Below are positions 5,204 through 60,977 of a DNA stretch of 64,000 nucleotides, one piece after another. The stretch is from contig CP011213.1 in assembly GCA_001029735.1 (NCBI GenBank), forward strand, positions 784,298-848,297, given 5' to 3'. Both the position numbers and the translations under genes were made by a program. Numbering within the stretch: position 1 is the first letter of the stretch; every line of letters starts with the position of its first letter. Source of the stretch: Berkelbacteria bacterium GW2011_GWE1_39_12. Lineage in GTDB: Bacteria; Patescibacteriota; UBA1384; UBA12157. Under the pieces are notes generated by a model, which worked only from the letters and a program-made list of their open reading frames with translations, did no database searches and had not been told where the DNA came from.

Positions 5204-5450
5204 CTGGATAAGCCTCCTTAATACAATACTCACTGTCTCTGACTGTGGCGCCAAAAGTATAGCAAAAATTGCCCAATAGGTCAAGATATTAATTGATTTC
5301 TTCTTCCTTGCCTTTTACTCCTGAAAGATGTAGAATAGGGTCAGTATGGCAAGAAAGCAAGTTTCTTGCGCGGAAATTTTTTGACTATTTATATTTGAAT
5401 TGGAATAAAATTATGGCTAAATAGATTTAGCGCGGAAATTTTAAAAAATT

Positions 5451-7298
5451 ATGGCAAGAAAAATACACAAAATGAGTAAAAAAGAGGCGAAAGCGGATTC
5501 AAAACGCGTATCTTTTGTTACGCAACAAAATGAGAATCGCCAACAGGTTATACAGCAGACCGAAAATAAAGTGGTGGAAGCACCATCGGTTTTGAGTGTA
5601 CGCGAATTCGCCGAATTACTTAAAGTGCCTGTTACTGAAATTATTGGCGCGTTGGTAAAAAATGGCGTTATGGCGACTATCAACGAATCGATTGATTACG
5701 ATACCATGTCAATTATTGCCGACGGTTTAGGTTTTTCTTTAACTGAAAAAGCCGAAGAAGAAATTAAACTCGAAACCAAAAATACAAAAAAGCATTTAAC
5801 CACTCGTCCTCCGGTTGTCACGGTTATGGGACATGTTGATCACGGTAAAACCATGCTTTTGGATGCAATCCGCCACACCGACGTTATTTCAACAGAATCA
5901 GGTGGAATTACTCAGCATATTGGTGCTTACCAAGTTACAGTAAAACGTGAAAATAAAGAACGTACGCTCACATTTTTAGATACTCCAGGTCATGAGGCTT
6001 TTTCCGCGATGCGTGCTCATGGCGCCAATATTACCGATGTTGTCGTTTTGGTGGTGGCGGCCAACGATGGCGTAAAACCTCAAACCATTGAAGCTATCAA
6101 CCATGCCAAAGCGGCTTCTGTTCCAGTGGTTGTAGCAATTAATAAAATTGATTTACCGGACTCTGATATTGATCGAGTTAAAAGACAATTGGCTGACAAT
6201 GGGCTTCTTTCCGAAGAATGGGGCGGCGATGTGCCGATGGTCCCAGTTTCAGCGAAAAACAAAGAAAATATTGATGAAATAATTGATATGATTTTGTTGG
6301 TTGCAGATTTGAAAGAATTGAAAGCAGACGCGACCTTACCAGCCACTGGCGTGGTGATAGAATCACACATGCAAGCTGGCCGCGGTCCGATTGCTACAAT
6401 TCTAATTCAAGAAGGCACATTACATGCCCATGACGTCGTTGTGATTGGTTCGACATATGGCAAAGTTCGTATCATGGAAAACTATTTAGGTAAAAAGATT
6501 TCTGAAGCAACTCCTTCAATGCCAGTGAGAATTGCTGGTCTTCAAGAAGTGCCAAACTTTGGTGATCGTGTTTTAGCAGTGGCAGACGAAAAAGAAGCCA
6601 AAGAATTAACCAAAGTAAAATCTATCAAACGAAAAGTTTTGTCGATTGGTGAGCTATCCCGTGATATTAAAGCTGGCAAAATTAAAGAATTAAAATTGAT
6701 TTTGAAAGCTGATGTCGCTGGATCTTTGGAAGCCATAAAAAAATCACTTAATGAAATTTCTAACGAAGAAGTAAAAATAAACGTTTTACATGAAGGTGTC
6801 GGCGATATTACTGAATCTGATGTAAACATGGCCTTGGCCTCCGAAGCGTTAGTAATTGGCTTTCGTGTCAAAGCATCGAGTGATGTGATGAATTTGGCGC
6901 GTCGAGAAAATGTTAAAATCAGTATTTATGATATTATCTATCAATTATTAGACGACTTAACCGCCGCTCTTTCAGGCTTATTAGAACCTGAAATCGTGGA
7001 AACTGAAATTGGCCGCATGAAAATTCTGGCTATCTTCAAGGTTCACCGCAACGAAAAAATTGTTGGCGGTAAGGTTACATCGGGTAAAATTGAAAATAAT
7101 TGTGAAGTTAAAATCGTTCGCGATAAAGAAACTATTGGAGAAGGAAAAATTGTTTCTTTGCAGCAAAATATGAAAGACGCTCGCGAAGTACTCGAAAACT
7201 TTGAGTGTGGTCTTAAAGTTGAGACCGAAATTAAACTCGCCGAAGATGATTCTCTTGAATGCTACAGAAAAGAAGAGCGAGTCCGTAGACTGTGCTAA
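5451..7298 (+). CDS. infB: translation initiation factor IF-2
   Basis: G-domain motifs [13 protein letters not shown] and NKID are present, followed by the IF2 beta-barrel domains. No nusA lies upstream. Confidence 0.95.
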   Translation: MARKIHKMSKKEAKADSKRVSFVTQQNENRQQVIQQTENKVVEAPSVLSVREFAELLKVPVTEIIGALVKNGVMATINESIDYDTMSIIADGLGFSLTEKAEEEIKLETKNTKKHLTTRPPVVTVMGHVDHGKTMLLDAIRHTDVISTESGGITQHIGAYQVTVKRENKERTLTFLDTPGHEAFSAMRAHGANITDVVVLVVAANDGVKPQTIEAINHAKAASVPVVVAINKIDLPDSDIDRVKRQLADNGLLSEEWGGDVPMVPVSAKNKENIDEIIDMILLVADLKELKADATLPATGVVIESHMQAGRGPIATILIQEGTLHAHDVVVIGSTYGKVRIMENYLGKKISEATPSMPVRIAGLQEVPNFGDRVLAVADEKEAKELTKVKSIKRKVLSIGELSRDIKAGKIKELKLILKADVAGSLEAIKKSLNEISNEEVKINVLHEGVGDITESDVNMALASEALVIGFRVKASSDVMNLARRENVKISIYDIIYQLLDDLTAALSGLLEPEIVETEIGRMKILAIFKVHRNEKIVGGKVTSGKIENNCEVKIVRDKETIGEGKIVSLQQNMKDAREVLENFECGLKVETEIKLAEDDSLECYRKEERVRRLC

Positions 7299-7359
7299 AA
7301 TATTTTTTGATCTAATAAAAAAGCTCCGATCTTGAAAACCGAAGCTTGATTTGGCGTGT

Positions 7360-7749
7360 TTAGTTTGATATTGCCGGATGTTCCAAGTCCCATTGGAGTA
7401 GCTTGGACTCGAATCGGCTGGCGACCTTGACGACGAACTTTCTGGTGACTCTCGCCCAAAGAGCGTCTCTGACCTCTTTTTCAGTTTCGCAATGCTCCGT
7501 GATGACTTTTTGAATAGCATTTTGAGCTGAATCTACTGTCACATTTACAGAATCCGACGGCACAAAACCGATTGTCTTGATAAGCTCGATGGCTAAATCG
7601 GATGTCAACCGATCGGTCATCTCATCGGTGCCGTCAGAAGCATCTAGTATGATCTGATCTGCTATCTCCACGGCTTTTCTGACTGTTTCCTGCCTTTCAT
7701 ACCCTATTCGCATTTGTGTATCTCGGTCTATCATTATACCCTCCGTCAT
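7360..7749 (-). CDS. hypothetical protein (GC-rich)
   Basis: Minus-strand ORF of 129 aa. An alternative start at MIDRD (7734) is preceded by GGAGGG. No recognisable domain. Confidence 0.35.
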   Translation of the reverse strand: MTEGIMIDRDTQMRIGYERQETVRKAVEIADQIILDASDGTDEMTDRLTSDLAIELIKTIGFVPSDSVNVTVDSAQNAIQKVITEHCETEKEVRDALWARVTRKFVVKVASRFESKLLQWDLEHPAISN

Positions 7750-7843
7750 CTGATTCGAAAATCTTCACTGTGATTTTACGCTTATTCACTCAAAAAGTCA
7801 AGACAAAAACACTGGTGAGATTTGTCTTAAAATGATTTTAGAA

Positions 7844-8770
7844 CTATTGTTTAATACAAGTATTGTATTTATCGACTTGAGTATTGTATGTATCACTTTC
7901 GGTTTGTATTTCTTTTGACAAACTGTCGGCTTGTGCTTGGAGGTCTTTTGCTTTTGCAGTGTCAGCGTCGGCTGTTTCACGAAGCGTTGTACCTTCATCC
8001 CAATATGGTTGTGCTTGAGTTTTGTCTTCTGTTTGAGTATATATTTCATTGCCTTGTTTTATCTTATCGTTTGCTTGGGCATTCATATTTGACGCTTCGG
8101 CGTAAAGAGCGTTTATTTGACTAGCCAAACTTTCATATATATTTTTTTTGTCATTGATATCTTGAAGGATGTTTGAATTGGGGCTCTTGCAATTTGGCAG
8201 GGGCTTACCGAATTCTTGAACTGCAAGCCAGGTCTTACCTCTATTCTCAAAGGTATCTAAACCGGTATAAATACCGATTTCCGTATACTCATTATTTAAT
8301 ATATTTGCCCTATGCCCAGGACTCGCCATCCAGGCATCCACCAAATCTTTTTCATCTTTAAAATCGCCCAAGGCCAAATTTTCGCCAGTGGTTTTGTAAT
8401 TGTAGCCGGTAGCGCTAACCAAATCGGAAGGGGAAACACCGGTAGGGGAAACATGCTCAAAATATTGATTGGTAAACATGTCATCGGTTTTTTTCTGAGC
8501 GGCAGTTACTAAAACAGTATTTGTTTTTAAGGCTAGTAAATTTTCGTCGGCGCGATATTTATTGGTCCAATCTAATACTTTGATGGGATCAAGTGTCTTA
8601 GCTTTTTCTGTGGTTTTTGGGCCAAAAAGTTGGCCTGGGAGACCAGTTGTTATTTTAGATGTACTTGTCTTAGAAAAATATTTTTTGTAAACAAAGTAAC
8701 TAGCCGTGCAAAACCCGCCTAAAATAATAACAATTAAGATAGTTAATAATATCTTTTTATTCAATTCCAT
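7844..8770 (-). CDS. CAP/SCP (YkwD-like) domain protein with an N-terminal TM anchor and a C-terminal coiled-coil, Q/K/D-rich extension
   Basis: N-terminal hydrophobic helix. The middle region has CAP-family signatures (HSQDM-like FTNQYFEHVSP, GENLALG, SPGHRANIL). The C-terminal ~120 aa is low-complexity and coiled-coil-like. Confidence 0.6.
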   Translation of the reverse strand: MELNKKILLTILIVIILGGFCTASYFVYKKYFSKTSTSKITTGLPGQLFGPKTTEKAKTLDPIKVLDWTNKYRADENLLALKTNTVLVTAAQKKTDDMFTNQYFEHVSPTGVSPSDLVSATGYNYKTTGENLALGDFKDEKDLVDAWMASPGHRANILNNEYTEIGIYTGLDTFENRGKTWLAVQEFGKPLPNCKSPNSNILQDINDKKNIYESLASQINALYAEASNMNAQANDKIKQGNEIYTQTEDKTQAQPYWDEGTTLRETADADTAKAKDLQAQADSLSKEIQTESDTYNTQVDKYNTCIKQ

Positions 8771-8878
8771 AATTTGCTTTGCAAATTTCCGCGAATTATT
8801 ATATTAATTCTATTTTACCAAAAATTTGGTTTCTTTTTTAGAACTAAAGCGGTATACTTTATATATATTAGGAGTATT

Positions 8879-9724
8879 TTGACTCAAACAGCGACTGAAC
8901 AAGCGATTTCACAAGTTCTTGGCGCTTCAGATAGGGCCAATTTTTTCGTAACTCAATTTAATTTTCGTGATCATCCCTACGAAATTTTAGATATTTTATT
9001 AGTAGCTATTCTCTTTTATTGGATCTATCTATTGCTAAAAGAAACCCGGGCAATGAGAATCCTATACGGTATTGCCATCCTTGCCATAATCATGCTTTTA
9101 GGCCGAATTTTGCAATTGGCAGCTCTGAATTTTATTTTAACTTATGTATTAGCGGGTTTAGTTGTGGCTATTCCGGTCTTATTCCAGCCTGAGCTAAGAG
9201 CCGCCTTAGAACGTCTTGGCAGGCCTCGATTTAACACCGGTGGGCTAAAACAGAATAAATTAAACCAAGTTGTGACAGAAGTGGTTGCCGCTGTTTCAGC
9301 ACTTTCGGAAAAAAGACAGGGCGGTATTTTTGTGATGGCGCGTCAAACTGGATTGCGCGATGTCATTTCTTCCGGCGTTCTTATTAATGCGGAAGTGACT
9401 AGACAATTATTAGTTAATATTTTTGCGCCAAAGACGCCTTTGCATGACGGCGCGGTTATTATTACTGCGGATAAAATCACTGCGGCTAATTGTTGGTTAC
9501 CATTACCACAGCAAGAATTTAAATTAGATTTAGGAACAAGACACCGAGCCGCCGCCGGTATAACGGCCGAAACAGATGCCATTGTGGTAGTAGTTTCGGA
9601 AGAAACTGGCCGTATTTCGTTGGCGGTCAGCGGAAACTTAACCGTAGGCCTTTCCCCTCAGCAACTGGGAGAATTTTTAGAAGGGCTGCTTTCGCATAGG
9701 ATGGAAGGGATAACAACAGGGTGA
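8879..9724 (+). CDS. cdaA: diadenylate cyclase CdaA (DisA_N domain, membrane-anchored)
   Basis: Three N-terminal TM helices are followed by DAC-domain motifs (TPLHDGAVII, DLGTRHRAA). A TTG start is chosen because AGGAG lies 4 nt upstream, although the ORF is open from 8774. cdaR lies downstream. Confidence 0.8.
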   Translation: MTQTATEQAISQVLGASDRANFFVTQFNFRDHPYEILDILLVAILFYWIYLLLKETRAMRILYGIAILAIIMLLGRILQLAALNFILTYVLAGLVVAIPVLFQPELRAALERLGRPRFNTGGLKQNKLNQVVTEVVAAVSALSEKRQGGIFVMARQTGLRDVISSGVLINAEVTRQLLVNIFAPKTPLHDGAVIITADKITAANCWLPLPQQEFKLDLGTRHRAAAGITAETDAIVVVVSEETGRISLAVSGNLTVGLSPQQLGEFLEGLLSHRMEGITTG

Positions 9725-10941
9725 AAAATTTTCTTCAAAAAATATTTGGCAATTTTTGGGCAAAAATTTTCTGCCTTATTTTGGCTGGTGCCCTTTGGCT
9801 TTATGTTGGCGTTGGCCAAACTAAAAGCAGCACTTTCCCTGGCGGCGTGCCACTGCAATTAAGAAATGTGCCACAGGGCTTGGTGCCGGTTACCGATGTT
9901 GATAAAGTGAAGGTTGATGTGGTTACTCAAAATGATGTCTTTAATAGTCTAAATGCAGATTCTTTTTCCGCCTATTTAGATTTGACGGGTCTTTCAGTTG
10001 GCACATACGATGTGAAGGTGACTATTGTGACTGCCGTAGCCAATGTTCAAATTGTTGAAACAAATCCTTCGACTGTAACCATTAGATTAGAACCTAAGGT
10101 CGAAAAAGAAGTTCAAATTAGCTGTTTGTTCGATGGTCAGGCCGGGACAGGCATGGCACCAGGCCAATGCGGTTTTGAGCCGAGTACTGTTAAAATATCC
10201 GGTGCAAGAAGTGTGGTTAACTCAATAACCGAAACAACGGCAAAAATCCATCTCCAAAATGAAACAGCTGATTTTAAAAAGTCTGTCAGTCTCGTTAGTA
10301 TTGATGCTCGTGGCAATGAAATTAAGAATCTAACCTTCTCTCCAGCCGAGGTTATGGTTACGGTTCCGATTGTGAAAGCCAGTAACATCAAAACTGTGGG
10401 TATAAAAGTTAACACTTCGGGAATCCCTGCCGACGGATATTGGGTCTCCAAAATTGAGTCATCTCCTTCAACTATTACCATTAACGCGGCGGATAACATT
10501 ATTAGTAGCATTAGTTATATCGAAACAGAGCCGATTGATGTAAATAACATCAGCAAAAATAAAACTGTTGAAGTCTCGCTAAAACCGTCTTCGGGAGTCA
10601 GTATTTTAGATAAAATCGATAAAGTGAAGGTAACCTTAACTATTAGCAAGAATCAGTCAACGAGAGAGGTGAATGCCGGCTTTAAATGGCTAAATCTTGC
10701 CGATAATCTAAAAGTGACCTCGGCTGATCCAAGTTCGGTTAAGATTGTGGCTGCCGGCTCACAAGATCAATTAAATAATCTCAACTCAGGTGACATTCTT
10801 GTTCAGGTTGATTTAACTGGCTTTGACGCTCCTGGTACTTATTCTGTTGATATTAGTCGAGCGAATATTTCTGGACCGACAGGTGTCTCAGTTTCGTCGA
10901 TTGTGCCGTCGGCGATCAATATAAGGTTGGATACTAAATAG
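9721..10941 (+). CDS. cdaR: CdaA regulatory protein CdaR (YbbR-like repeat protein)
   Basis: N-terminal TM is followed by repeated ~90-aa YbbR-type beta-domains. It overlaps the cdaA stop by 4 nt, which is the canonical cdaA-cdaR arrangement. Confidence 0.7.
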   Translation: MKNFLQKIFGNFWAKIFCLILAGALWLYVGVGQTKSSTFPGGVPLQLRNVPQGLVPVTDVDKVKVDVVTQNDVFNSLNADSFSAYLDLTGLSVGTYDVKVTIVTAVANVQIVETNPSTVTIRLEPKVEKEVQISCLFDGQAGTGMAPGQCGFEPSTVKISGARSVVNSITETTAKIHLQNETADFKKSVSLVSIDARGNEIKNLTFSPAEVMVTVPIVKASNIKTVGIKVNTSGIPADGYWVSKIESSPSTITINAADNIISSISYIETEPIDVNNISKNKTVEVSLKPSSGVSILDKIDKVKVTLTISKNQSTREVNAGFKWLNLADNLKVTSADPSSVKIVAAGSQDQLNNLNSGDILVQVDLTGFDAPGTYSVDISRANISGPTGVSVSSIVPSAINIRLDTK

Positions 10942-10989
10942 TCCTTGCATCTTCTGGCGCTTTTGCTAATGTAGAAAGTGCCTTTTTAA

Positions 10990-11958: not shown

Positions 11959-12957
<999 letters not shown>

Positions 12958-12995
12958 TAAAAAATAAAAAACCCAACCGTAAGGTTGGATTATAT

Positions 12996-14288: not shown

Positions 14289-14348
14289 CCCATCCTCGAA
14301 AGAGGATGTTTTTATATTCTTGAAATCGTTCAGGAAATGGCTGAGATC

Positions 14349-14756: not shown

Positions 14757-14764
14757 GCGAACAA

Positions 14765-18600: not shown

Positions 18601-18960
18601 GGAGCCGCTCATTCACTGCAAGAAATGTTAACGATTAAATCGGATGACGTTGTAGGCCGAAGCAAAGCTTATGAAGCCATTATCAAAGGCGAACAAATTC
18701 AGAAACCGTCGATTCCAGCTTCGTTCTTTGTCTTAGTCAAAGAACTTCAGTCGCTTGGCTTGAATGTTGAAATGCTTTCAGCCGCCGATTTAGCCAAGGC
18801 CGCAAAGAAAATTAGCCGCCCGGCAGTGGGCGAATCTGAAAACGAAAAAGAAGATAATGATATTAATAATGCAGAAGAATTAGACGCCGAGGTAACCGAA
18901 TTAAAAGAAGAAGAACCACCGATGGTCGAACCATCGATTGATGAGGGAGAAGATAAATAA
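15631..18960 (+). CDS. rpoB: DNA-directed RNA polymerase subunit beta
   Basis: GTG start with a GGGAG RBS. Conserved RpoB blocks throughout, plus a C-terminal acidic tail. Confidence 0.97.
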
Positions 18961-19005
18961 TGGTCAAGCTATGCTTATCGCGGAAATTTTAAAGGATTTA
19001 AAATT

Positions 19006-22000
19006 ATGAAAGATAACAAAACACAACCACAAATGGCGAGAGAAACTTCGAAAGTATCAGATTTTGATGCCTTGAAAATTTCTGTTGCTTCTCCTGAAGA
19101 CATTGCAAATTGGTCCTTCGGTGAAGTTACCAAGCCAGAAACTATCAACTACCGCACCCAGAAGCCGGAACGCGATGGTCTTTTTGATGAAAGAATTTTC
19201 GGTCCGACTAAAGATTGGGAATGTTACTGCGGTAAATACAAAAAAATCCGTTACAAAGGTGTAATTTGCGATAAATGCGGCGTTGAAGTCACTCGTAGCG
19301 CTGTCAGACGTGAAAGAATGGGTCATATTGATCTTGCTGTTCCTGTTACCCATATCTGGTATGTCCGTGGTGTTCCGTCTGTCGTAAGTTTGATTTTAGA
19401 TATTTCTGTTTCCGATTTAGAAAAAGTCGTCTATTTTGCCGGCTTTATTGTTTTGGATGTTAATGAAGATGTTAGAAAATCTTCGTTGGAACAATTGGAA
19501 AGAGAGTACGCCGAAGCCAAGGGTAAATTAACCAATAATATGGATATTGCGAAAGTTGATGCTTCTTATAAAGCCACCAAGCTAGAAATTATGTCCTTGG
19601 TTTCCAAGAAGATTTTAACTGAAGGCCAATATCATGATTTATCCTTGAAATATGGTCAGATTGTTAAAGTCGGAATTGGTGCCGAAGCCGTTTTTGAACT
19701 TCTAAAACGCGCTAATTTGGATGAATTAAATGAAGATTTCTCCGGACAATTAGTTTCAGCCATTGGTATTAATCGACGCAAATTATTACGTAGATTAAAG
19801 CTTGTTTCTGAAATGCGTGAAGCCGGTATTCGTCCGGAATGGTTGGTTTTAACCAAATTACCAGTTATTCCACCAGATCTACGTCCAATGGTTCAATTGG
19901 ATGGTGGCCGTTTTGCCGCCTCCGATTTAAATGATCTTTACCGACGTGTCATCAATAGAAATAACCGTCTAAAGAGACTTATTTCACAGGGCGCCCCAGA
20001 AGTTATCTGTCGCAATGAAAAAAGAATGCTTCAAGAAGCAGTTGATTCACTGATTGATAACTCAGCTCGAAGAGGACGCACTGCCTCAACCGGCGCTGCC
20101 GCCCGAAAACTTCGATCACTTTCCGATATGCTTCATGGTAAGCAAGGCCGGTTCCGCCAGAACTTGCTTGGAAAACGTGTCGACTATTCAGGTCGTTCAG
20201 TTATTGTTGTAGGTCCAAACCTTAAATTACATCAGTGTGGTATTCCTAAGATGATGGCTTTGGAACTTTTCAAACCATTCGTTATCTCCAAGCTTATCAA
20301 CGAAGGCCACGTTCATAATGTTAAAAATGCTACTAAATTAATGGAAAAAGGTGAACCAGTTGTTTGGGATATTCTTGAAAAAATTACTTCAGATTACAAT
20401 GTGTTGTTAAACCGCGCCCCAACGCTACATCGTTTGGGTATTCAGGGTTTCCAGCCAGTTTTAATCGAAGGTAAAGCCATTCAGATTCACCCATTGGTTT
20501 GTTATGCTTTCAACGCTGACTTTGATGGTGACCAGATGGCTATCCATGTTCCGTTGTCTACTCAGGCCAGAGAAGAAGCCGCTACCTTAATGCGCGCTGA
20601 TCATAATGTCTTAAAACCTTCATCCGGCGAACCAGTTATTATTCCTCGATATGAAATTGTCGCGGGTATTTATTGGTTGACCGGTATCCAAGAAGGCGCA
20701 CAAGGCGAAAATAAAATCTTTGGTAGCAAAAATGAAGCTATTTTAGCTCACCAAGAGGGTTTTGTTCATGCTCGCGCTAAGATTAAAGTTCGCATGAAAC
20801 TTAATAAAATGGATCCAGCGGCAAAAGAAGAAATCGTTGAAACAACAGCTGGTAGAATTTTATTCAACAATATTTTGCCAGATGAATTGCAATTTAGAAA
20901 TGAAACTTTTGATTCCAAAGCTTTGAAAAATATCTTGTCAGAGCATTTTGCCAGGTTTGATGTTGCTGGAACAGCAGAATTTGCTGATAGAATCAAGGAT
21001 ATTGGTTTCAGGTATTCATCTGTTTCCGGTATGACTATTTCGATTTCCGATATTCATATTTCAGATGATAAAAATATAATCGTCAAAGAAGGCGATAAGA
21101 AACTGGAAGAAATTGAATTGCAGTATCAACGCGGTTTAATTACCGACAGTGAACGCAAAATGAAGATTATCGAAATGTGGACCGAAATTCGTGGCAGAAT
21201 TGAGAAGAGTATGATTGCGCAATACGATGAACAGAGTCCGGTTTACCAAATGGTTAAATCTGGTGCTCGTGGTTCTTTTGCTCAGGTTACTCAGCTCGCT
21301 GGTATGAAAGGTTTAGTGGTTAACCCGGCTGGTGAAATTATTGAATTGCCGATTAAACATAACTATAAAGAAGGTTTACCTGTATTCGAATACTTTATTT
21401 CGACTCACGGTGCCAGAAAAGGTAAATCAGATACTTCACTTCGTACTTCTGAGGCTGGGTATTTGACTCGTCGTTTAGTCGACGTTTCACAAGATGTCGT
21501 CATTACTATGGACGACTGTGGCACAGATCAATTCCTAGATATCACCCGAACAGAATCCGAAGAGATGGGTGAGAAATATTCACAAAGAATGATTGGCCGC
21601 GTTTCAGCTCAAGACGTAAAAGCCGGTAAAGATACAATTGTAAAAGCCGGTGAAGAAATCACCGAAGAAATAGCTGAAAAGATTGATGCCACTGGCATTG
21701 ATACTTTAAAGGTTCGAACCGTGATGGGTTGCCATGCCGAGCGTGGCATTTGCCGCAACTGTTATGGTAAAGATCTTTCTTCAGGTAAGATGGCTGAACA
21801 TGGCGCTGTCGTTGGTATTATTGCCGCTCAGGCCATCGGTGAACCAGGTACGCAGCTTACTATGAAAACCTTCCACATGGGTGGTGTTACTGGAGAAGAT
21901 ATTACTTCTGGACTTCCACGTGTTGAAGAATTGTTTGAGGCTCGTACGCCAAGAAATCCTGCTATTATGGCTGATATGGATGGCATAGTTAGAATTTTTG

Positions 22001-33208: not shown

Positions 33209-33885
33209 TGGGCCAAAAAGTTAATCCAATTAGTTTTCGATTACCACTCAATAAGGATTGGCAATCAAAATGGTTTTCCAAGGGTAATTTTGCAAAAAAT
33301 TTAGCCGAAGATTTAGCCATTCGCCAAGCTATTGAAAAAAAATATGGTAAAACTGCCGGTATTGGCCGAGTTGAAGTTTTGCGAGACAACGATTCTATTA
33401 CCGTCAATCTTCACTCCTCAAAGCCTGGTATTTTGATCGGTCGCAGTGGCCAAGGTGTTATTGAATTAAAAGCTTATTTATTAAAAAATGTTGCTATTTA
33501 TAAAACTATGGACAGCAACAAACAACCAAAAATTAAAGTTGACGTCATTGAAATTAAAGCCCCTGAGTTAAATGCTCAATTGGTGGCTGAAAATATCGCT
33601 ATTCAGATTGAAAAAAGAATTCCTTTCAAGAGAGCAACCAAGCAAGCTATTCAGAAAACCATGGAAATGCGCGCCAAAGGAATTAAAATCCAGGTTTCAG
33701 GTCGCCTTGGTGGCGCTGAAATTGCCAGAAGCGAAAAATATGGCGAAGGTTCTGTCCCATTGGGTCGCCTTAAAGCCAACGTTGACTACGGTTATGCGAT
33801 CGCGATGACTACCTATGGTACCATCGGCGTCAAAACATGGATTTACAAAGGTGATATTTTGAAAGAAGAGAAGGAAAAAAACTAG
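33208..33885 (+). CDS. rpsC: 30S ribosomal protein S3
   Basis: MGQKVNPISFRL... and a KH domain. Confidence 0.96.
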   Translation: MGQKVNPISFRLPLNKDWQSKWFSKGNFAKNLAEDLAIRQAIEKKYGKTAGIGRVEVLRDNDSITVNLHSSKPGILIGRSGQGVIELKAYLLKNVAIYKTMDSNKQPKIKVDVIEIKAPELNAQLVAENIAIQIEKRIPFKRATKQAIQKTMEMRAKGIKIQVSGRLGGAEIARSEKYGEGSVPLGRLKANVDYGYAIAMTTYGTIGVKTWIYKGDILKEEKEKN

Positions 33886-33925
33886 CTCACGCTAGTCGCG
33901 GAATTTTCTAGAAAGAAAATATAAT

Positions 33926-34333
33926 ATGTTAATGCCCAAGAAATTAAAACACAGAAAAGTTAACCGTGGCAAACGCGCTGGCGTAGCCTCACGCGGCTTT
34001 GAGATATCGTTTGGCCAATATGGTTTGAAATCATTGGGCAGAGGATGGCTTACGGCTCGTGAAATCGAAGCCGCCCGACGTGCCATGACCCGTTATATCA
34101 AACGTGGTGGCGCAGTCTGGATCCGTATTTTCCCAGATAAACCAGTTACCCAGAAAGCCGCCGAAGTTGGTATGGGTGGTGGAAAAGGTACTATGGATCA
34201 CTTTGTAGCCGTCGTTCGACCAGGAAATATTTTGTTTGAAATGGCTGGCGTTCCTGAGGATATTGCTCGCGAAGCGTTACGCTTAGCCTCACATAAATTA
34301 AGAGTTGAAACCAAATTCGTTAAGAAAGATTAA
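33926..34333 (+). CDS. rplP: 50S ribosomal protein L16
   Basis: [11 protein letters not shown]... Confidence 0.95.
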
Positions 34334-36217: not shown

Positions 36218-36613
36218 ATGGATACAATAGCAAACATGTTCACACAACTTAAAAACGCAGGTCATGCCGGAAAGAAAGAAGTTTCCGTTTCTTACTCAAA
36301 GCTAAATTTAGCCATTTTAGCCATTTTGAAGGAAAAAGGTTTTGTTGCTTCATTCAAAGAAGAAACAGCCGAAGGAAAAAAATATCCTAACCTAACAGTT
36401 ACCTTATCTTTTAAGGCAAATAACGAATTATCATTCAATGATATTCGCCGTGTCAGCCGATCTGGTCGCCGCATTTATGTTGGCGCCGGACGATTGCCAC
36501 AGTTAATGCGCGGCAAAGCGGAAATCTTAGTTTCAACTTCCAAAGGTGTTATGAGTGGAACTGACGCGAAGAAAAAAGGCCTTGGCGGAGAGATTCTAGG
36601 AGAGGTGGTCTAA
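36218..36613 (+). CDS. rpsH: 30S ribosomal protein S8
   Basis: MDTIANMFTQLKNA... Confidence 0.95.
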   Translation: MDTIANMFTQLKNAGHAGKKEVSVSYSKLNLAILAILKEKGFVASFKEETAEGKKYPNLTVTLSFKANNELSFNDIRRVSRSGRRIYVGAGRLPQLMRGKAEILVSTSKGVMSGTDAKKKGLGGEILGEVV

Positions 36614-36659
36614 TGGCCATGATAAATCATGTCGCGGAATTTTCGGGAAAGAGGAAAAT

Positions 36660-37214
36660 ATGAGTAGAATTGGAAGATTACCGATCAAAAATATAGAAGG
36701 TGTGACTTTCACCGAGGATCATGGTCACATTGTGATTACTGGCCCAAAGGGCGAGCAGGTTTTAGAATTCCCAAGACAGCTTAAGCTGGAAAAGACGGAT
36801 TCTGAAATTATTTTATCTCGTAACTCTGAAGACAAAAAAATCAGAGCTTTGCATGGTTTATATCGCCAGTTAATCGCTAATGCCATGGAAGGCGTTAGTA
36901 AAGGTTGGGAAAAGAAATTAGATTTTAAAGGTGTTGGTTATCGCGCGGAAACGCAAGGCGATAATAAATTAGTTATGGCATTGGGTTTTTCCCATCCGGT
37001 TGAAATTATTGCCCCAGAAGGCATCACTTTCACGGTTCAAAAAAATGTCATTACTGTCAGCGGCATCGACAAACAAAAAGTCGGTCAAGTTGCTGCCAAT
37101 ATCCGAAAAATTCGCCCAGTCGAACCATATAAAGGTAAAGGTCTTAAATATATTGACGAAATCCCACGTAAAAAACTTGGTAAAGCGGCTAAAGCAGCCG
37201 GGGGAGCAGCCTAA
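36660..37214 (+). CDS. rplF: 50S ribosomal protein L6
   Basis: SRIGRLPIK... with two L6 domains. Confidence 0.95.
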
Positions 37215-52422: not shown

Positions 52423-52440
52423 CTAATTAAAGGAGGTTTC

Positions 52441-54087: not shown

Positions 54088-54176
54088 AGCTAGAGTGCAA
54101 AACAGGAACACAGTCTTGGCGACTGCGATCAGGGCACCCTTTCGGGGGTGCCCTAGATTTTTATTTGGAGGTAAAA

Positions 54177-55346: not shown

Positions 55347-56587
55347 AAAGGTTGATATTGTGTAGTATTGCACTGTTATGTTTGTTTTTCGGTTCTTCGG
55401 TCGTCAATGCGGACCCAGCCACCAAAATTACCAATGTCTTTCAGGATACAGATATCCGCCAAGCCTTGGTCACGATAGCAGTCCAAGCTGGTGAAAATGT
55501 TGTCCCTGACTCATCGGTCGGCAACATGACTGTCACACTTGATTTGAAAGATGCGCCGTTTGAGGTTGTTTTGCAGATGATCTGCGACTCAGGCGGTTAT
55601 TCGTTCATCAAAGACGAGCATTGTTATCTTGTCGGCCAGGCCGTGCCAACTAACCCGAATTTTGACAGATTCTGCACCTCGGAAGCAGTTAAGCTGAAAA
55701 ACAGTGAAGCTTGTGAAATGGTTAAGGTTTTCAATCAATTTTACGCGCAGTATGTTAAGGCCGGCGGAACAAGGGAAAACGTTATAGTAATCTCTGCTCC
55801 ACAACGCATCAGCCAAGCTATTAAGAAGATAATTCAAGAAATCGATCAGCCAAAGAGACAGATCGAGATCGAGGTGATGGCAGTTGAAATCCAGAAGGTC
55901 AAGGGAAGAGATTTTATGCTTGATTGGACGGAAGGAAGGCCGGGCGTCAGTGGAGGAATTGAGACTCTTTCATTTGCGAACTTTGTGTTTGGTTATACAA
56001 ACACATTGTCCAAGAATGTCCTAATCGGGCTCAAAAGCGCCCTTCAAAATGGAGTTGCTAGAGTTCGTGCGAATCCACGGATAACGACAATGGACGGATA
56101 CGAAGCTTTATTTTCCTCTGGACAAGAAGATTACTTTGACACTTCCAGTCAGAATCCGAATGGATGGCAGACTGGTAAGCTCGAAAAGATCGAGTCTGGT
56201 GTCAAATTGAAAATACTGCCACGTCTAGCAGAAAATGGAGAAATCAATCTTTGTATAACGCCGGATGTGTCAGACGTCATTGGAAAAACCGAACAGGGTT
56301 TACCAAGACTTAATGTTCGGACAATGACAACGACGCTTCGGGTTAAAGACGGAGAAACGATTGTTATGGGAGGTATGCTGAGTGAGATAAGCAGATCCTC
56401 TAAAAAGAAATTGCCGATTCTAGGAGACCTTCCTCTGATCGGTTTCGCTTTCAGAAGCAACTCGACGTCCGCGATTGTGACCGATATGGCGATCCTGGTG
56501 ACGCCACGAATAGTCAACGATCTTACAACGCGAACATCTGTTGAAGCCAACTCTGATCTTCTTGAAGCCGTTGGCGAAAGACGATAA
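55343..56587 (+). CDS. secretin (GspD/PilQ/CpaC family) with one N-domain and a C-terminal secretin domain
   Basis: Signal peptide. An N0-like domain carries the STN-like motif. The Secretin_N block reads VISAPQRISQAIKKIIQEIDQPKRQIEIEVMAVEI. The C-terminal secretin signature reads LRVKDGETIVMGGM...LPILGDLPLIGFAFRS...AILVTPRIV. Confidence 0.8.
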   Translation: MKRLILCSIALLCLFFGSSVVNADPATKITNVFQDTDIRQALVTIAVQAGENVVPDSSVGNMTVTLDLKDAPFEVVLQMICDSGGYSFIKDEHCYLVGQAVPTNPNFDRFCTSEAVKLKNSEACEMVKVFNQFYAQYVKAGGTRENVIVISAPQRISQAIKKIIQEIDQPKRQIEIEVMAVEIQKVKGRDFMLDWTEGRPGVSGGIETLSFANFVFGYTNTLSKNVLIGLKSALQNGVARVRANPRITTMDGYEALFSSGQEDYFDTSSQNPNGWQTGKLEKIESGVKLKILPRLAENGEINLCITPDVSDVIGKTEQGLPRLNVRTMTTTLRVKDGETIVMGGMLSEISRSSKKKLPILGDLPLIGFAFRSNSTSAIVTDMAILVTPRIVNDLTTRTSVEANSDLLEAVGERR

Positions 56588-56606
56588 AATAATATACATT
56601 TATACG

Positions 56607-56633
56607 GGAGTAGTCACATGACTGCTCCTTTTT
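56607..56633 (+). terminator. intrinsic terminator after the secretin gene (GGAGtAGTC-acat-GACTGCTCC + T5)
   Basis: 9-bp stem with one mismatch, followed by a U-run. Confidence 0.55.
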
Positions 56634-56747
56634 AATTACAATTAAAAACGCCGAGCGGTAAACTATCCGAATTGTCGAAAGAATTATAAATTTTAATAGT
56701 TGAAAAATATATTTATCGGCTATATATTAGATATATAAGGAGAATAT

Positions 56748-56924
56748 ATGAAAATACAGGACAATGGGCCTGCAGGTGCAGTTTATGGCATGGGTTTCGT
56801 TGGCGCATTGGTTTATTTCTTAACCAATGCCGGAACTTTTTGGATTGGCGTTTTGGGCGTTCTAAAAGCCATTGTTTGGCCAGCCATCTTAGTTTACGAA
56901 GCCCTAAAGTTTTTAATTAAATAA
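56748..56924 (+). CDS. small hydrophobic protein (58 aa, 2 TM), not in the ORF track
   Basis: Strong RBS TAAGGAGAA 6 nt upstream. Translation is MKIQDNGPAGAVYGMGFVGALVYFLTNAGTFWIGVLGVLKAIVWPAILVYEALKFLIK. Confidence 0.45.
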   Translation: MKIQDNGPAGAVYGMGFVGALVYFLTNAGTFWIGVLGVLKAIVWPAILVYEALKFLIK

Positions 56925-56971
56925 AATACGGAACAAATCAGATAGCGGAAAATTCGATGTAATAAATTACA

Positions 56972-57130
56972 ATTTAAATATCAAGAAGCGGTGAGAGATT
57001 TGGCTCGTTGACCCGCTACCAACCGTTCGACTAGTTGTCTAAAGGCGCTCACGGTGGTAAATCCAACCCGAAAGGGAAAGATACGGCAAGTGCAAAACTA
57101 GCTTTTTCTTTCCAATCGGAAAGTTTTTTT
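56972..57130 (+). promoter_or_regulatory. SAM-I (S-box) riboswitch with an intrinsic-terminator expression platform, leader of metK
   Basis: AUCAAGAAGCGGUGAGAGAUUUGGCUCGUUGACCCGCUACCAACC matches the S-box core (AUCAAGAG.GGYGGAGGGA.UGGCCCGAUGAA.CCCGGCAACC). It continues GGUGGUAAAUCC...GAAAGGGAAAGAUACGG and ends in the terminator CUUUCC-AAUC-GGAAAG+U7 at 57106-57130. Confidence 0.7.
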
Positions 57131-57147
57131 GATATAGAAAGGACAAA

Positions 57148-58107
57148 ATGCGAACAGCCGAATGTGTGAGTGCCGGCCATCCGGACAAAATTTGCGATCA
57201 AATTTCCGATGCAATACTAGATGAATGCTTGAGACAGGATCCAATGTCTCGTGTGGCAGTTGAAACTATGGGTGGTCATGGGAAGATTTTTATTTGCGGG
57301 GAGGTTACCACAAAAGCGGAGTTTAATGCTAAAGAAATTGCCATCAAAATTTATCGTGAGCTAGGCTATGAAGATGAGATAAAAGTGATTTCAAATATTG
57401 TTAAGCAAAGCCCAGATATTGCTTGCGGCGTTGATACTGGCGGGGCGGGGGATCAGGGAATAATGGTTGGTTATGCGTGTAACGATAACGAGCAGATGAT
57501 TCCGCAGGAATTATATTTGGCGAGAAAGATTTTAAGTCAATTACCAAAAAACTTTGGGCCGGATGCCAAGTGCCAAGTGACATTGGATAAAAAAAATAAT
57601 ATTGAAACAATTGTTTTGTCAGCTCAGCATACTGAAGGACAGAATTTAAAACCTCTTGAGAACTTAGTAAAAAAATATAATCCGAAAAAGTACTTTGTAA
57701 ATCCGACGGGCAAATTCGTGATCGGTGGTTTTTTTGGCGACACCGGTCTAACTGGACGCAAACTGGCTGTTGATAATTATGGCCCTCAAGTACCAATCGG
57801 CGGCGGCGCTTTTTCCGGTAAAGATCCAAGTAAAGTAGATCGCTCTGCTGCATATATGGCTCGTCGAGTCGCCGTAGATTTATTGAAAGAAAAAAAAGCA
57901 AAAGAAGTACTTGTTAAGATCGCTTATTCAATTGGTATAGCAGAGCCAGTGATGGCGATCGCTGAGATTGATGGTAAAAGATTTGAAATAACAGGCTATG
58001 ACTTAACACCTCAAGGCATAATTAAATATTTGGATCTAAGGAAACCGATTTATCTTAAAACTGCTAAACTAGGTCATTTCGGCAATAATCTTACTTGGGA
58101 CAAATAA
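57148..58107 (+). CDS. metK: S-adenosylmethionine synthetase (compact ~320-aa form)
   Basis: MRTAECVSAGHPDKICDQISDAILDE and GGGAFSGKDPSKVDRSAAYMAR signatures. Confidence 0.9.
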   Translation: MRTAECVSAGHPDKICDQISDAILDECLRQDPMSRVAVETMGGHGKIFICGEVTTKAEFNAKEIAIKIYRELGYEDEIKVISNIVKQSPDIACGVDTGGAGDQGIMVGYACNDNEQMIPQELYLARKILSQLPKNFGPDAKCQVTLDKKNNIETIVLSAQHTEGQNLKPLENLVKKYNPKKYFVNPTGKFVIGGFFGDTGLTGRKLAVDNYGPQVPIGGGAFSGKDPSKVDRSAAYMARRVAVDLLKEKKAKEVLVKIAYSIGIAEPVMAIAEIDGKRFEITGYDLTPQGIIKYLDLRKPIYLKTAKLGHFGNNLTWDK

Positions 58108-58183
58108 AAAGGGGTTATCCGCTTGACAAATATGACAAATGGGTTTATTTTGTATTAAGAGTGATTACGTACGGAGGTTGCAA

Positions 58184-58396
58184 ATGTCTGATGATAACAC
58201 TCGTGTGACGGGCCTATGCAATGATTGTATGGCTGAACAAGATGTGGTGCTTGTACACGAGCTGGATAACGACGAGTTTGCCAAGAACAAGATAAACAAC
58301 AACATGCATCTCAATTTCATCCTATCTCCTCACAACTTCGGCGGCGCCATTTGCCCTGGAGTAGGGCAGCATCCAGTTGATTTGTACAACGTGTAG
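58184..58396 (+). CDS. small hypothetical Cys-containing protein (70 aa)
   Basis: ATG follows a GGAGG RBS. An intrinsic terminator lies downstream at 58419-58443. Confidence 0.35.
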   Translation: MSDDNTRVTGLCNDCMAEQDVVLVHELDNDEFAKNKINNNMHLNFILSPHNFGGAICPGVGQHPVDLYNV

Positions 58397-58460
58397 CTTG
58401 TTTTTTGGCCATTTTTTTCAAACCGGCTTTTGCCGGTTTTTTCTACCCTGTTGCGTTATC

Positions 58461-58682
58461 CTAATCTGAGATCTCTACAATTTTATTTTTATTCTTATGC
58501 CCGGCGTTAATTGTTATTAATGACTTGGGCTTTTTAAAATATTTACTTAAAGCATCAATTATTGCGCTGTTGGCTTTACCTTTTTCCGGGATAGCAGTGA
58601 CATAAACTTCGTAGGTGAGGTCATCTATTTGTTTGACAAGTGTTTTATTGGCGTTTGTTTTCGCATTTACAATTATTTTCAT
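58461..58682 (-). CDS. DUF167 (YggU/UPF0235) family protein
   Basis: 73 aa. KGKANSAIIDALSKYF...ITINAGHKNKNKIVEI matches the DUF167 pattern. Confidence 0.6.
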   Translation of the reverse strand: MKIIVNAKTNANKTLVKQIDDLTYEVYVTAIPEKGKANSAIIDALSKYFKKPKSLITINAGHKNKNKIVEISD

Positions 58683-58706
58683 AAAGTTATTATAACAAAA
58701 AACCGC

Positions 58707-59414
58707 CTATTGTTTAGGCGGCTTGGTAACAGCCGTGATGTTTTTTGGCGCTTTGTGCCAACGAAAGACAATATGGAAAGGACTCTTACCCTTAACAACA
58801 TGTCCGCCGTCAGTATTAATCGCTTCATCGCACTTAAGAACATTGGCGAAAAAACTGGCCAAAGTTCTAATATTAGTACGACTCTGAACTATGTATATAT
58901 AGCCAGAGGTAAAACCCATGCCCATTCTGTCGGTTTCTGCATCAATAAAGACCGTTTTAAAACCATCGTAGCGAAAAGGCTTGATCATCTGTCCTAAGGC
59001 AACAGCATCGATTTCCTTATTCTTATTAAGAAGCTGGTAGTCTTGAGACAGGTTGATGCGGCCATCCGGATGGATAGCAAGAAAATACCGCCCAACCTCG
59101 CGTCCTTTTACCTTTACACCGTTACGACGAAAGTAATCAACTGGAAGATTGGTTCTGCAGTCATAGAAGTTGCCAGAACAAACCGCAAAACCACCGAGCC
59201 GCTTCTTAGCTCTTTCTTTCTTTTCGCCACCAGGTTCATAGGAAATCACTGCCTCAACGTGGTTGCATCGAGGCAGCTGAACAACGAGGAATGTTGCGCC
59301 TTTGTACTTGGTAACCCAAGGTTTCACTATATGCTTGGGATGATTTTGGGTCCAAGAGGCGCACGGCAAGGCAAGTAAAGCAAGAACAACAAGAACTATC
59401 AGTAGAACTCGCAT
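58707..59414 (-). CDS. secreted phosphodiester glycosidase family (DUF2233/NAGPA-like) protein
   Basis: Signal peptide. C-terminal INTDGGHV matches the DUF2233 DGGGS-like block. GC-rich. Confidence 0.5.
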   Translation of the reverse strand: MRVLLIVLVVLALLALPCASWTQNHPKHIVKPWVTKYKGATFLVVQLPRCNHVEAVISYEPGGEKKERAKKRLGGFAVCSGNFYDCRTNLPVDYFRRNGVKVKGREVGRYFLAIHPDGRINLSQDYQLLNKNKEIDAVALGQMIKPFRYDGFKTVFIDAETDRMGMGFTSGYIYIVQSRTNIRTLASFFANVLKCDEAINTDGGHVVKGKSPFHIVFRWHKAPKNITAVTKPPKQ

Positions 59415-59498
59415 CTTAGACCTCCTATTGTTAAGGTAGATTTATTATGGCACAAAAGCGAAAACAGTCCAAAAAGTATATCATTCTGCAAGCGCTGT

Positions 59499-59538
59499 GT
59501 CAATTGGTAATTGACTATATTGCTCAACCTGATAAAAT
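59499..59538 (+). promoter_or_regulatory. secY promoter (TTGACT-16-TAAAAT) with a palindrome GTCAATT-GGT-AATTGAC overlapping the -35
   Basis: Perfect 7-bp inverted arms at 59499-59515. Confidence 0.45.
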
Positions 59539-59593
59539 GGTGTAGGATTTAAATGTAAGTAATTAAGAAATAGCTGCTTTAGGAATAATTAAT

Positions 59594-60868
59594 ATGAGAA
59601 TAATTGAAACATTTCAAGAAATCTTTACGATGAAAGATTTGCGTAATCGTATTTTGTATGCGGTTGGGCTGTTGTTGGCTGCAAGAATTTTAGCGCATGT
59701 ACCATTACCGGGTGTTGATCTTGATGCCTTACAAAGCTTTTTTGCAAGAAACCAAATTTTCGGTTTATTCAATATGTTTTCCGGCGGCGCGATGGAAAAT
59801 TTTTCCGTAATATTGATGGGTGTCGGGCCATATATTACCGCAACGATTATATTTCAGTTGCTTACCATGATAATTCCAGCGATGGATGAACTTAATAAGG
59901 AAGGCGAAAGTGGTCGTGCAAAAATCAACTACTGGACTCGAATTGCCACCGTGCCTTTAGCGCTTGTTCAATCGTTTAGTATGATCCGGATTTTACAAAG
60001 CCAAAGTATTTTAGGCTCCTTAGAACCTTTACAATGGGCAACCATTCTTGTTTCGGTTACTGCTGGTACTATTTTATTAATGTGGCTGGGTGAACTTATA
60101 ACGGAAAACGGCATTGGAAACGGCGTTTCCCTTATCATTGCTTTAGGTATTATCTCCGCCATTCCAGGCCAAGTGCGAAATACCTTACAATTAGTTGATT
60201 CTGGTATGATTGTCGGTTTAATTATTTATATTGCCATTTCAATTGCCGTTGTTGTGTTAATTGTGCTGGCTAACGAGGGTACGCGGCAAATTCCAGTTTC
60301 CTATGCGCGGCGAATACGAGGGCTAAAATCATATGGCGGCGTTGATTCGTTTATTCCTATTAGAGTCAACTCAGCCGGCGTTATTCCAATCATTTTTGCC
60401 ATGAGCATTTTACTTGTTCCAGGTGTGGTGGCTAATTTACTACAAAATGCAAAATCCGAATGGTTAGCCAGTTCTGCTGCACATATGGCAACTTTTTTCC
60501 AGAATAATCTTTACCAGGGAATCATCTACTTTATTCTTGTAGTAGCCTTTACCTATTTCTACACAGGCATTGTATTAAAACCAACCGATATGGCCGAGAA
60601 TTTGCAAAAGCAAGGCGGTTTCATTCCAGGCATCAGACCAGGCACAGAAACGTCTAATTATTTGAGTAAGGTCGTGCTATATATTACTCTTTCAAGCGCA
60701 ATCTTTCTTGGCGCAATTGCTGTTTTACCATATATCGTCCAAGCTATCACCAATATTAATACACTTGTTCTAGGTGGAACCGGTATCTTGATTATGGTTT
60801 CGGTTATAATTGAAACGATGAGACAAATTCAGGCTCAGTTAGCAATGAGATCGTACGATAAATATTAA
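59594..60868 (+). CDS. secY: preprotein translocase subunit SecY (displaced ~21 kb from rplO)
   Basis: 10-TM SecY with conserved blocks (GVGPYITATIIFQLL, plug and TM7 regions). It has its own promoter, TTGACT-16-TAAAAT. Confidence 0.95.
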   Translation: MRIIETFQEIFTMKDLRNRILYAVGLLLAARILAHVPLPGVDLDALQSFFARNQIFGLFNMFSGGAMENFSVILMGVGPYITATIIFQLLTMIIPAMDELNKEGESGRAKINYWTRIATVPLALVQSFSMIRILQSQSILGSLEPLQWATILVSVTAGTILLMWLGELITENGIGNGVSLIIALGIISAIPGQVRNTLQLVDSGMIVGLIIYIAISIAVVVLIVLANEGTRQIPVSYARRIRGLKSYGGVDSFIPIRVNSAGVIPIIFAMSILLVPGVVANLLQNAKSEWLASSAAHMATFFQNNLYQGIIYFILVVAFTYFYTGIVLKPTDMAENLQKQGGFIPGIRPGTETSNYLSKVVLYITLSSAIFLGAIAVLPYIVQAITNINTLVLGGTGILIMVSVIIETMRQIQAQLAMRSYDKY

Positions 60869-60977
60869 ACCGTTTACATATTCACCAGCATGTTCCGCGG
60901 AAATTTACTTCTTAAATTATCGAGACTATGCGTCAGATTCAAGCACAATTAGTAATGAGATCATACGATAAATATTA
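60815..60977 (+). repeat. degenerate direct repeat of the secY 3' terminus (~50 nt, ~80% identity) flanking a 59-nt spacer that carries a CCGCGGAAATTT motif
   Basis: CGATGAGACAAATTCAGGCTCAGTTAGCAATGAGATCGTACGATAAATATTAA (end of secY) is matched by CGAGACTATGCGTCAGATTCAAGCACAATTAGTAATGAGATCATACGATAAATATTAG at 60928-60977. Confidence 0.7.

Follow-up and report, generated by a model that had tools for sequence, protein, structure and literature searches.

A two-hairpin repeat unit ending on the start codons of core genes in Berkelbacteria: a possible MIRU-like passenger element

The 64-kb stretch of the genome of Berkelbacteria bacterium GW2011_GWE1_39_12 that was analysed in this study (hereafter the window; approx. 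40% G+C) contains seven exact matches to the sequence CGCGGAAWTTT, at positions 5369 (+), 5431 (+), 8793 (-; 8783-8793), 18979 (+), 33897 (+), 36633 (+) and 60896 (+). Two of these are located before infB, one before a CAP-domain gene divergent from cdaA, one each between rpoB and rpoC, rpsC and rplP, and rpsH and rplF, and one after secY; all are intergenic and oriented toward the next gene. The expected number is 0.24, and none of 100 dinucleotide-preserving shuffles of the window reached seven. The recurrence had been noticed in a preliminary description of this DNA, whose gene names were correct and whose coordinates and distances between motif and ATG (9, 15, 18, ~16 and ~12 nt) were accurate to within 1-2 nt; the motif is indeed real, non-random, lineage-restricted and tied to start codons. 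The accompanying claim that CGCGG is rare was mistaken, since this word occurs 91 times on both strands of the window. The enrichment is limited to the longer word, and the shorter CGCGGAA is not significantly enriched (14 occurrences versus 7.9 expected).

Two hairpins, overlooked in that description, flank the motif. CGCGGAAATTT does not stand alone as a site but belongs, as the fixed core, to a small repeated unit. The unit (35-70 nt; mostly 35-45 nt when measured from hairpin 1 up to, but not including, the ATG) is composed of AT(G/A), a variable perfect hairpin 1, a single-stranded GCGGA, an A/T-rich hairpin 2 (AAWTTT...AAAWT) and a final ATG, which is the start codon of the downstream gene. 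Hairpin 2 takes its 5' arm from the A/T portion of the motif, and its 3' arm (AAAWT) adjoins the ATG; the initial C of CGCGG is usually paired with the G that comes after the first ATR. Hairpin 1 precedes each core and differs in sequence from copy to copy, so that seven different hairpin-1 sequences are found in one window. Both hairpins are present at only six of the 91 CGCGG sites, all of them copies of the motif; the seventh copy, after secY, does not qualify with respect to hairpin 1. A resemblance of hairpin 2 to a CodY box (AATTTTC...GAAAATT) was ruled out, because the spacing and the inner bases vary.

A covariance model built from 30 units retrieved the same seven copies from the window and nothing else. 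The two units preceding infB are arranged in tandem downstream of a promoter-like site revealed by a consensus scan (TTGCCT-N17-TAGAAT, 5308-5336, +). Unit A (5346-5415, +; 25.6 bits) is a long variant, in which ATG is followed by hairpin 1 (GCAAGAAA-gcaag-TTTCTTGC, 5349-5369), the core CGCGGAA (5369-5375), hairpin 2 (AATTTT...AAAATT, with a 26-nt loop) and ATG (5413-5415). The initial 11 nt of unit A, ATGGCAAGAAA, are a repeat of the infB start that has stayed at the promoter, where it makes up the 5' arm of hairpin 1. Unit B (5413-5453, +; 52.3 bits) comprises ATG, hairpin 1 (GCTAAAT-ag-ATTTAGC), GCGGA, AATTT-taaa-AAATT and the ATG that starts infB (5451), and the IF-2 protein read from this codon is the one called in public data (P0135). 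The unit of the CAP-domain gene (8768-8813, -; 49.4 bits) has an ATA border, hairpin 1 GAATTA-atataa-TAATTC (8793-8810), GCGGA, hairpin 2 AATTTGC-aaa-GCAAATT (8771-8787) and its ATG at 8770-8768.

In the rpoB/rpoC unit (18960-19008, +; 53.5 bits), the first ATG is overlapped by the rpoB stop codon (TAATGG) and is followed by hairpin 1 (AAGC-tat-GCTT), CGCGG, hairpin 2 (AATTTTAAA-gga-TTTAAAATT) and the ATG of rpoC (19006). The first ATG of the rpsH/rplF unit (36613-36662, +; 49.9 bits) is overlapped by the S8 stop codon in the same manner (TAATGG), with hairpin 1 CATGA-taaa-TCATG, a T, CGCGG, hairpin 2 ATTTTC-gggaaagag-GAAAAT and the rplF start codon (36660). The hairpin 1 of the rpsC/rplP unit (33881-33928, +; 39.1 bits), ACTAGC-tcac-GCTAGT, holds the stop codon of S3, and CGCGG, hairpin 2 (ATTTTCT-agaa-AGAAAAT), ATAAT and the rplP start codon (33926) complete this copy. 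Finally, the unit after secY (60876-60921, +; 14 bits, E 0.48) is degenerate: hairpin 1 is weak (ACAT...ATGT), the core lies within TTCCGCGGAA, hairpin 2 is AATTTA-cttct-TAAATT, and ATC replaces the ATG.

Scanning of public metagenome contigs for CGCGGAAATTT-N3-12-AAATTATG revealed at least 116 stretches. About half were judged to be chance matches, in higher-GC DNA without hairpin 1, and the remaining ones among the matches listed are on low-GC contigs (33-46% G+C) and have the full two-hairpin layout. The covariance model identified 82 units at E <= 0.001 in 68 sources (the window and 67 fetched contigs, denoted below by L numbers). The contigs that bear a name are all from Berkelbacteria: RBG_13_40_8 (L130) and 'Candidatus Berkelbacteria bacterium' (L090, L087). 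The DNA of the window is also present on a 342-kb groundwater-metagenome contig, and its L16 protein and that of GW2011_GWE1_39_12 are 100% identical. Among species-representative genomes found through the L6 protein (the best 56% identical), none carries the motif, and the single match on a viral contig, in 55% GC DNA without hairpin 1, was judged a chance one. No family of Rfam 15 matches the units (the window passes the gathering threshold only for the SAM riboswitch), and a search of seven unit-rich loci against Rfam gave no match with E <= 1.

The alignment of the 82 units revealed strong covariation. Standard pairs occupy 94.9% of the paired cells (78.3% in shuffles) and 139 double-sided changes were counted (33.6 in shuffles), while pairing dropped to 31-61% in controls with a slid register. 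The core C-G-C-G-G-A-A, the flanking AT(R)G and the terminal ATG are essentially invariant, which is partly built in, because the retrieval pattern and the model favour these features. The long stems are perfect in 34/35 and 30/35 cases. G-U pairs are rare (12 of ~470 hairpin-1 cells), and at stem ends G-U and A-C are equally represented (27 vs 25), giving no asymmetry and no strand signal. The predicted RNA folds are weak (-4.7 to -10.8 kcal/mol, with z-scores of ~0 to -2.9). Moreover, contig L090 carries a complete unit (3614-3662, +) placed antisense in a tRNA-Glu/tRNA-Gln spacer (3509-3772), the ATG of which starts no gene. The perfect stems, the rare G-U pairs, the weak folds and this antisense copy favour an origin or maintenance of the palindromes at the DNA level, which we infer could proceed, for example, by templated correction of quasi-palindromes. 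The same points suggest that the effect on mRNA is mild, and are compatible with a function in RNA.

A separate observation concerns the commonest type of hairpin 1 (G-Y-CAAGC...GCTTG-T-C). Its second pair is a recurrent pyrimidine-T mismatch in 27 of the 82 units (alignment columns 5 and 47), which, amid otherwise perfect stems, may be a recognition feature.

For 38 of 49 terminal units (78%) the last ATG opens an open reading frame (ORF) of at least 60 codons or a frame open to the contig end, and 19 of 20 ORFs read from a unit ATG are exactly the proteins called in public collections. The genes thus preceded are unrelated; they encode L16, L3, L25, L31, S6, S18, TopA, GreA, RuvX, PheT, RsmH, MraY, TypA, glycosyltransferases and membrane proteins. 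They are poor in Shine-Dalgarno (SD) sequences: an SD-like 4-mer at -16 to -5 was found in 17 of 62 units, versus 25 of 37 ordinary genes of the window, many window genes carrying AGGAGG-like sequences. The earlier remark that SD sequences are absent at these sites is therefore true only in relative terms, and the genome does use such sequences.

Some hairpin-2 loops hold AGGA or GGAG. The core itself is unlikely to act as a substitute SD sequence, because canonical ones are used elsewhere and GCGGA offers only GGA (3 nt) to the CCUCC anti-SD, at the wrong distance (20-30 nt from the ATG). No rRNA was present in any fetched locus in which a 16S 3' end was sought for comparison with GCGGAAAUUU. 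Of the RNA-level initiation signal put forward in the preliminary description, this part is not supported, while a role of the whole unit in initiation or processing is possible.

Several simple rules for the placement of the units were examined and rejected. A native SD sequence is kept upstream of the first ATG/ATA of the unit in only 12 of 46 cases. The notion that the 5' arm of hairpin 1 copies the first codons of the gene holds for infB and the CAP gene, and overall gives 3.21 versus 2.75 identities of 9. A -10 box 6 nt before the unit was clear in only four cases and infB. Promoter-like sites are no commoner at units than in shuffles, and the distance between core and ATG varies. As for termination, hairpin 1 is followed by CGCGGAA, with a T run 8 nt later, and no plus-strand intrinsic terminator was called at the units in 5200-9000. 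Upstream stop codons fall at -38 to +15 relative to hairpin 1, and stop/start overlaps (TAATG) were seen in single cases, S8/L6 and rpoB/rpoC. The 5' border reads ATA rather than ATG in about half of the units. Short ORFs opened by the first ATG terminate at no fixed position, and an ATGA overlap is formed by only 4 of 19.

Comparison with relatives demonstrated that the units are gained and lost. In the S8/L6 spacer a unit is present in the window and L002, and the site is empty in L083, L085, L087, L208 and L209; relative to L083 (...GTCTAAT^ATGAGT), the window carries a clean 45-nt insertion at the point marked ^. The S3/L16 site is occupied in the window and in L084, which share homologous hairpin-1 sequences and 91% identical L16 proteins. 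It is empty in L083, the sister strain of L084 (flanks of ~94% nucleotide identity), in the closest relative L206 (L16 93% identical), and also in L207, L208, L209, L210, L085 and L087, i.e. in eight relatives in total. In relatives lacking the unit, the genes of both pairs abut or overlap. The rpoB/rpoC unit is shared with L162 (flanks ~85% identical, stems altered), and no empty site was seen there.

At infB, the window and L211/L212 (IF-2 85% identical) have two units between the same promoter and gene. The site is empty in L213 (RBG_13_40_8; IF-2 73% identical), where the same promoter boxes occur without a unit in a leaderless-type arrangement (TTGCCT-N17-TAGAAT-N6-ATGGCAAGAAAA). The CAP gene unit of the window is likewise missing from the CAP/cdaA region of L211 (TATAAT-N6-ATG). 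In both of these unit-free relatives a -10 box stands exactly 6 nt before the ATG (infB in L213, 5985-6003; the CAP gene in L211, ~9003-9030, minus strand); judged from the sequence layout, TAGAAT-N6-ATG and TATAAT-N6-ATG suggest leaderless mRNAs for core genes of Berkelbacteria.

Copy number is also variable. L143 and L176, with flanks 99.5-100% identical, carry two and four units, respectively, and further tandem arrays are present in L122, L139, L191 and L194. Of four unit sites in the cell-division clusters of L184 and L191, which are syntenic (65-80% protein identity), only one is common to both, and its hairpin 1 shows a compensatory C-G to T-A change. Conservation at orthologous sites, to which the preliminary description had looked as a check, is thus mixed: sites are often empty in close relatives, and some units are kept across contigs whose proteins are 45-70% identical.

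Another phenomenon connected with the units is the duplication of gene ends. The functional secY 3' end (last 20 codons and stop; 60806-60868, +) and an orphan duplicate of it (IIETMRQIQAQLVMRSYDKY and stop; 60916-60978, +) flank the degenerate unit, the orphan lying directly after it. The two copies differ at 11 positions, of which 10 are silent (nine synonymous codons and the stop, TAA vs TAG). The orphan end is closer to the native secY end of L208 than the functional copy is, which suggests that the functional copy and the unit are incoming DNA from another lineage, joined upstream of the resident end. In L122 (reverse strand, ~580-830 of the reverse complement), the end of lepA (MEILKQ and stop) occurs five times with synonymous differences only; after each of copies 1-4 come a perfect reverse complement of that copy and a CGCGGAA core, and after copy 5 the original downstream sequence. 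The duplicated flanks measure 3, 11, 21 or 63 nt, and such variable lengths (11, 21, 63 nt) fit illegitimate or unequal recombination better than the action of a transposase.

The best reading of these data is that the units are not an operator, a promoter or a substitute SD sequence. We favour, with moderate confidence, the view that they are near-neutral passenger repeats resembling the interspersed repetitive units of mycobacteria (MIRUs), polymorphic for gain and loss, variable in copy number, located on start codons and supplying the ATG. Such an element has apparently not been described before in Berkelbacteria, an uncultured candidate-phyla group; searching the literature for this motif, and for repeats of candidate-phyla bacteria, yielded nothing relevant. 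Units would be inserted directly at start codons, and occasionally at ATG/ATT codons near gene 3' ends. They may multiply locally by tandem duplication or unequal recombination, and may pass from one lineage to another along with adjoining gene sequence, through illegitimate recombination anchored by homology. A factor that reads the structure and GCGGAA may also move them; the invariant GCGGAA combined with free perfect stems points to a factor that reads the core. An insertion would be tolerated since it shares the transcript of the gene, forms no more than weak AU-rich hairpins and delivers an ATG. Ribosomes could arrive at this ATG directly, or could re-initiate there once they have passed the upstream stop codon or the short ORF opened by the first ATG. 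Its position on a start codon, together with the start codon it provides, would thus account for the survival of the repeat.

Several observations weigh against this view. Neither a transposase nor terminal inverted repeats nor a target duplication of fixed length came to light, so that mobility in the strict sense is only putative; the window contains no transposase or recombinase genes. The stop/start overlaps and internal ORFs of the MIRU type are not regular. An invariant single-stranded core with co-varying stems is also typical of a functional RNA or DNA site with a common reader. Nor does this view account for efficient translation of essential, SD-poor genes such as rpoC and infB from a unit ATG. 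Furthermore, syntenic units before the genes of L25, S6, RuvX and YfiH-like proteins are kept, with intact cores, across contigs whose proteins are 45-70% identical, and this retention, with the compensatory change, is hard to fit to pure neutrality unless turnover is continuous. The same retention sustains the rival readings in which a common factor acts on RNA or on folded single-stranded DNA. The census is, in addition, biased by a search pattern that required CGCGGAAATTT...AAATTATG.

An alternative that we regard as tentative is that the unit is a host-beneficial cis-acting RNA module, in which a lineage-specific protein or RNase reads GCGGA(A) between two helices. In one variant, the unit would be an intercistronic or 5' untranslated region processing site, with hairpin 1 as the 3' protector of the upstream message and hairpin 2 with the AUG as the new 5' end. 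RNase E/Y-type enzymes prefer A/U-rich single-stranded sites beside a hairpin, and GG/AAWUU fits this preference. In another variant it would be a platform for SD-independent initiation or re-initiation. The low frequency of SD sequences in these genes favours such a module. An invariant linker between co-varying stems is a signature of structured cis-elements; each copy in the window points in the direction of transcription, and the association of 78% of terminal units with a real start, as well as the syntenic retention with one compensatory C-G to T-A change, speak in the same direction. Some units are preceded by a TAnAAT box, with exactly 6 nt between it and the first ATR; hairpin 1 would then come to lie at the very 5' end of the mRNA, a position in which stem-loops stabilise transcripts. 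However, the same essential genes manage in close relatives without the unit, with overlapping or leaderless-type starts, and copy number differs between near-identical strains. The near-perfect Watson-Crick stems with few G-U pairs are unusual for helices selected in RNA, and the weak predicted hairpins, the antisense copy in a tRNA spacer and the absence of an Rfam match also count against an RNA module.

A more speculative idea, which we consider improbable, is that of a structure-guided insertion system of candidate-phyla bacteria, in which units with two hairpins of free sequence around an invariant GCGGAA are read as a folded single strand, are placed at ATG codons and convert leaderless or overlapping starts into leadered ones while giving the gene a new start codon, possibly with AUG-to-AUG transfer of ribosomes. 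Also unlikely is the proposal that the unit is a structure-specific substrate of DNA recombination or transposition, folded single-stranded DNA being read by an enzyme, as at integron attC sites and IS200/IS605 ends, and inserted at ATG. Perfect stems lacking the G-U signature of RNA and free sequence around an invariant core are found in attC sites as well, the insertions are clean and bounded by AT(G/A)...ATG, and the arrays of L191 contain reassorted hairpin-1 and hairpin-2 modules. On the other hand, there is no candidate enzyme gene in the window, and the flank duplications (11, 21 and 63 nt) look more like illegitimate recombination; orientation follows the gene in every case seen, but selection alone could give the same result.

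We consider it very improbable that the first and terminal ATG form a take-off/landing or re-initiation pair, with ribosomes that start at a 5'-terminal or coupled AUG#1 passing at hairpin 1 to AUG#2. The unit is bounded by ATG...ATG, hairpin 1 begins at +4 of AUG#1 and often includes a stop codon, the TAnAAT-N6-ATR layouts would place AUG#1 at the transcript 5' end, and the displaced lepA and secY ends differ almost only synonymously, as if still translated. Half of the units nevertheless have ATA at the 5' border, the short ORFs end irregularly, and the synonymous pattern is equally well explained by units derived from different lineages. Hardly any credence can be given to the operator of a global transcription factor or the promoter element suggested in the preliminary description: one copy does form the palindrome TTCCGCGGAA and the copy at 5369 is followed by a TTGACT hexamer, but otherwise only half-sites occur, the genes that follow are functionally diverse, the distance to the ATG is variable, several copies are internal to the rpoBC and S10/spc operons, tandem arrays and gain or loss between close strains are observed, and recognisable promoters lie upstream of the whole unit.

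If the passenger-repeat explanation is correct, Berkelbacteria carry a tiny repeat in many copies, and it remodels the regions where translation starts in core genes, among them rpoC, infB and those of ribosomal proteins. In the cases seen, overlapping gene pairs and leaderless-type starts have become leaders of 40-100 nt with few SD sequences. The genomes concerned are smaller than 1 Mb, and seven copies in 64 kb correspond to roughly 100 per genome, which is an extrapolation and not a count. Genome annotation would be affected through start-codon calls and the short ORFs inside units, and copy number could serve as a strain marker, like MIRU-VNTR (variable-number tandem repeat) typing in mycobacteria. 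It would also have to be asked by what route the ribosomes of candidate-phyla bacteria begin translation.

The window contains other features that deserve mention. The stretch of ~600 nt between gyrA and the infB promoter (4668-5300) is missing in L211, L212 and L213; it holds a palindromic repeat, TCGTCATTGCGAGCAAAGCGAAGCAATC (~4677-4706), similar to one in L177, and a minus-strand ORF of 171 aa (4769-5284) with no Pfam match. Approximately 21 kb (38605-59594), in which no repeat units were found, separate the L15 gene from secY and encode UvdE, an M50B-like peptidase, AHSA1, Band_7, a histidine phosphatase, a PIF1-like helicase, a secretin and MetK; in L208, secY follows within 1.3 kb of L15. 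The SAM riboswitch (RF00162, 49.4 bits; 56975-57087, +) lies directly upstream of metK (S-adenosylmethionine synthetase; 57148-58107, +). Between S5 and L15 (38012-38605) there is no L30 gene, and the protein in the L15 position has no confident Pfam match, a picture consistent with the reduced ribosomal protein set of candidate-phyla bacteria.

Comparison with known repeat systems helps to place the Berkelbacteria unit. DNA uptake sequences (DUS/USS) occur at about 1 per kb, in both orientations and also in coding DNA, whereas the units number seven in 64 kb and are intergenic and gene-oriented. Miniature inverted-repeat transposable elements (MITEs) differ in that the ends of the unit (ATRG... 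and ...AAWTATG) are not inverted repeats and no fixed-length target duplication accompanies them. Repetitive extragenic palindromic sequences and the mosaic elements built from them (REP/BIME, associated with RAYT transposases) are, like the units, short palindromic intergenic repeats in many copies that can lie inside operons. However, REPs share one palindrome per genome and a GTAG, and often occur as inverted pairs after genes, whereas the stems of the unit differ by copy, lack GTAG, are found in a single orientation or in direct tandem, and end on a start codon. Integron attC sites and the ends of IS200/IS605 elements resemble the units in their free stem sequence, conserved fold with a short core, and perfect stems, which fit a constraint at the DNA level. 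Yet the window contains no integrase or TnpA gene, and gene cassettes, R-box or TTAC-type cleavage motifs are absent; recombination at a unit was not seen, and, in comparison with IS200/IS605, two hairpins are present but unconserved in sequence.

Programmed bypass elements (T4 gene 60 and the mitochondrial 'byp') are likewise short hairpin insertions with matching border codons that leave the host gene functional. They are, however, located inside coding regions and depend on ribosome hopping, whereas the units lie at gene borders, where ordinary initiation or re-initiation suffices; in half of them the first ATG has been lost.

The closest analogue appears to be the mycobacterial MIRU, which, according to Supply et al. 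(1997), as summarised in PMC12548453, is apparently mobile and inserts at start codons, with a short ORF that couples it to the gene. The host phylum differs and the sequences are apparently unrelated, but both elements measure tens of nucleotides, are intergenic and co-oriented with the operon, stand at start codons with downstream expression preserved, and form tandem arrays whose copy number differs between strains (here two in L143 and four in L176). In contrast to the MIRU, the Berkelbacteria unit is A/T-rich, consists of two variable perfect hairpins around GCGGAA, has no regular internal ORF overlapping the flanking genes by -4 or -1, and is also present on leaderless-type genes at the start of a transcript. 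If our favoured explanation is correct, it would be a second, independent case in which a repeat persists through its place on start codons.

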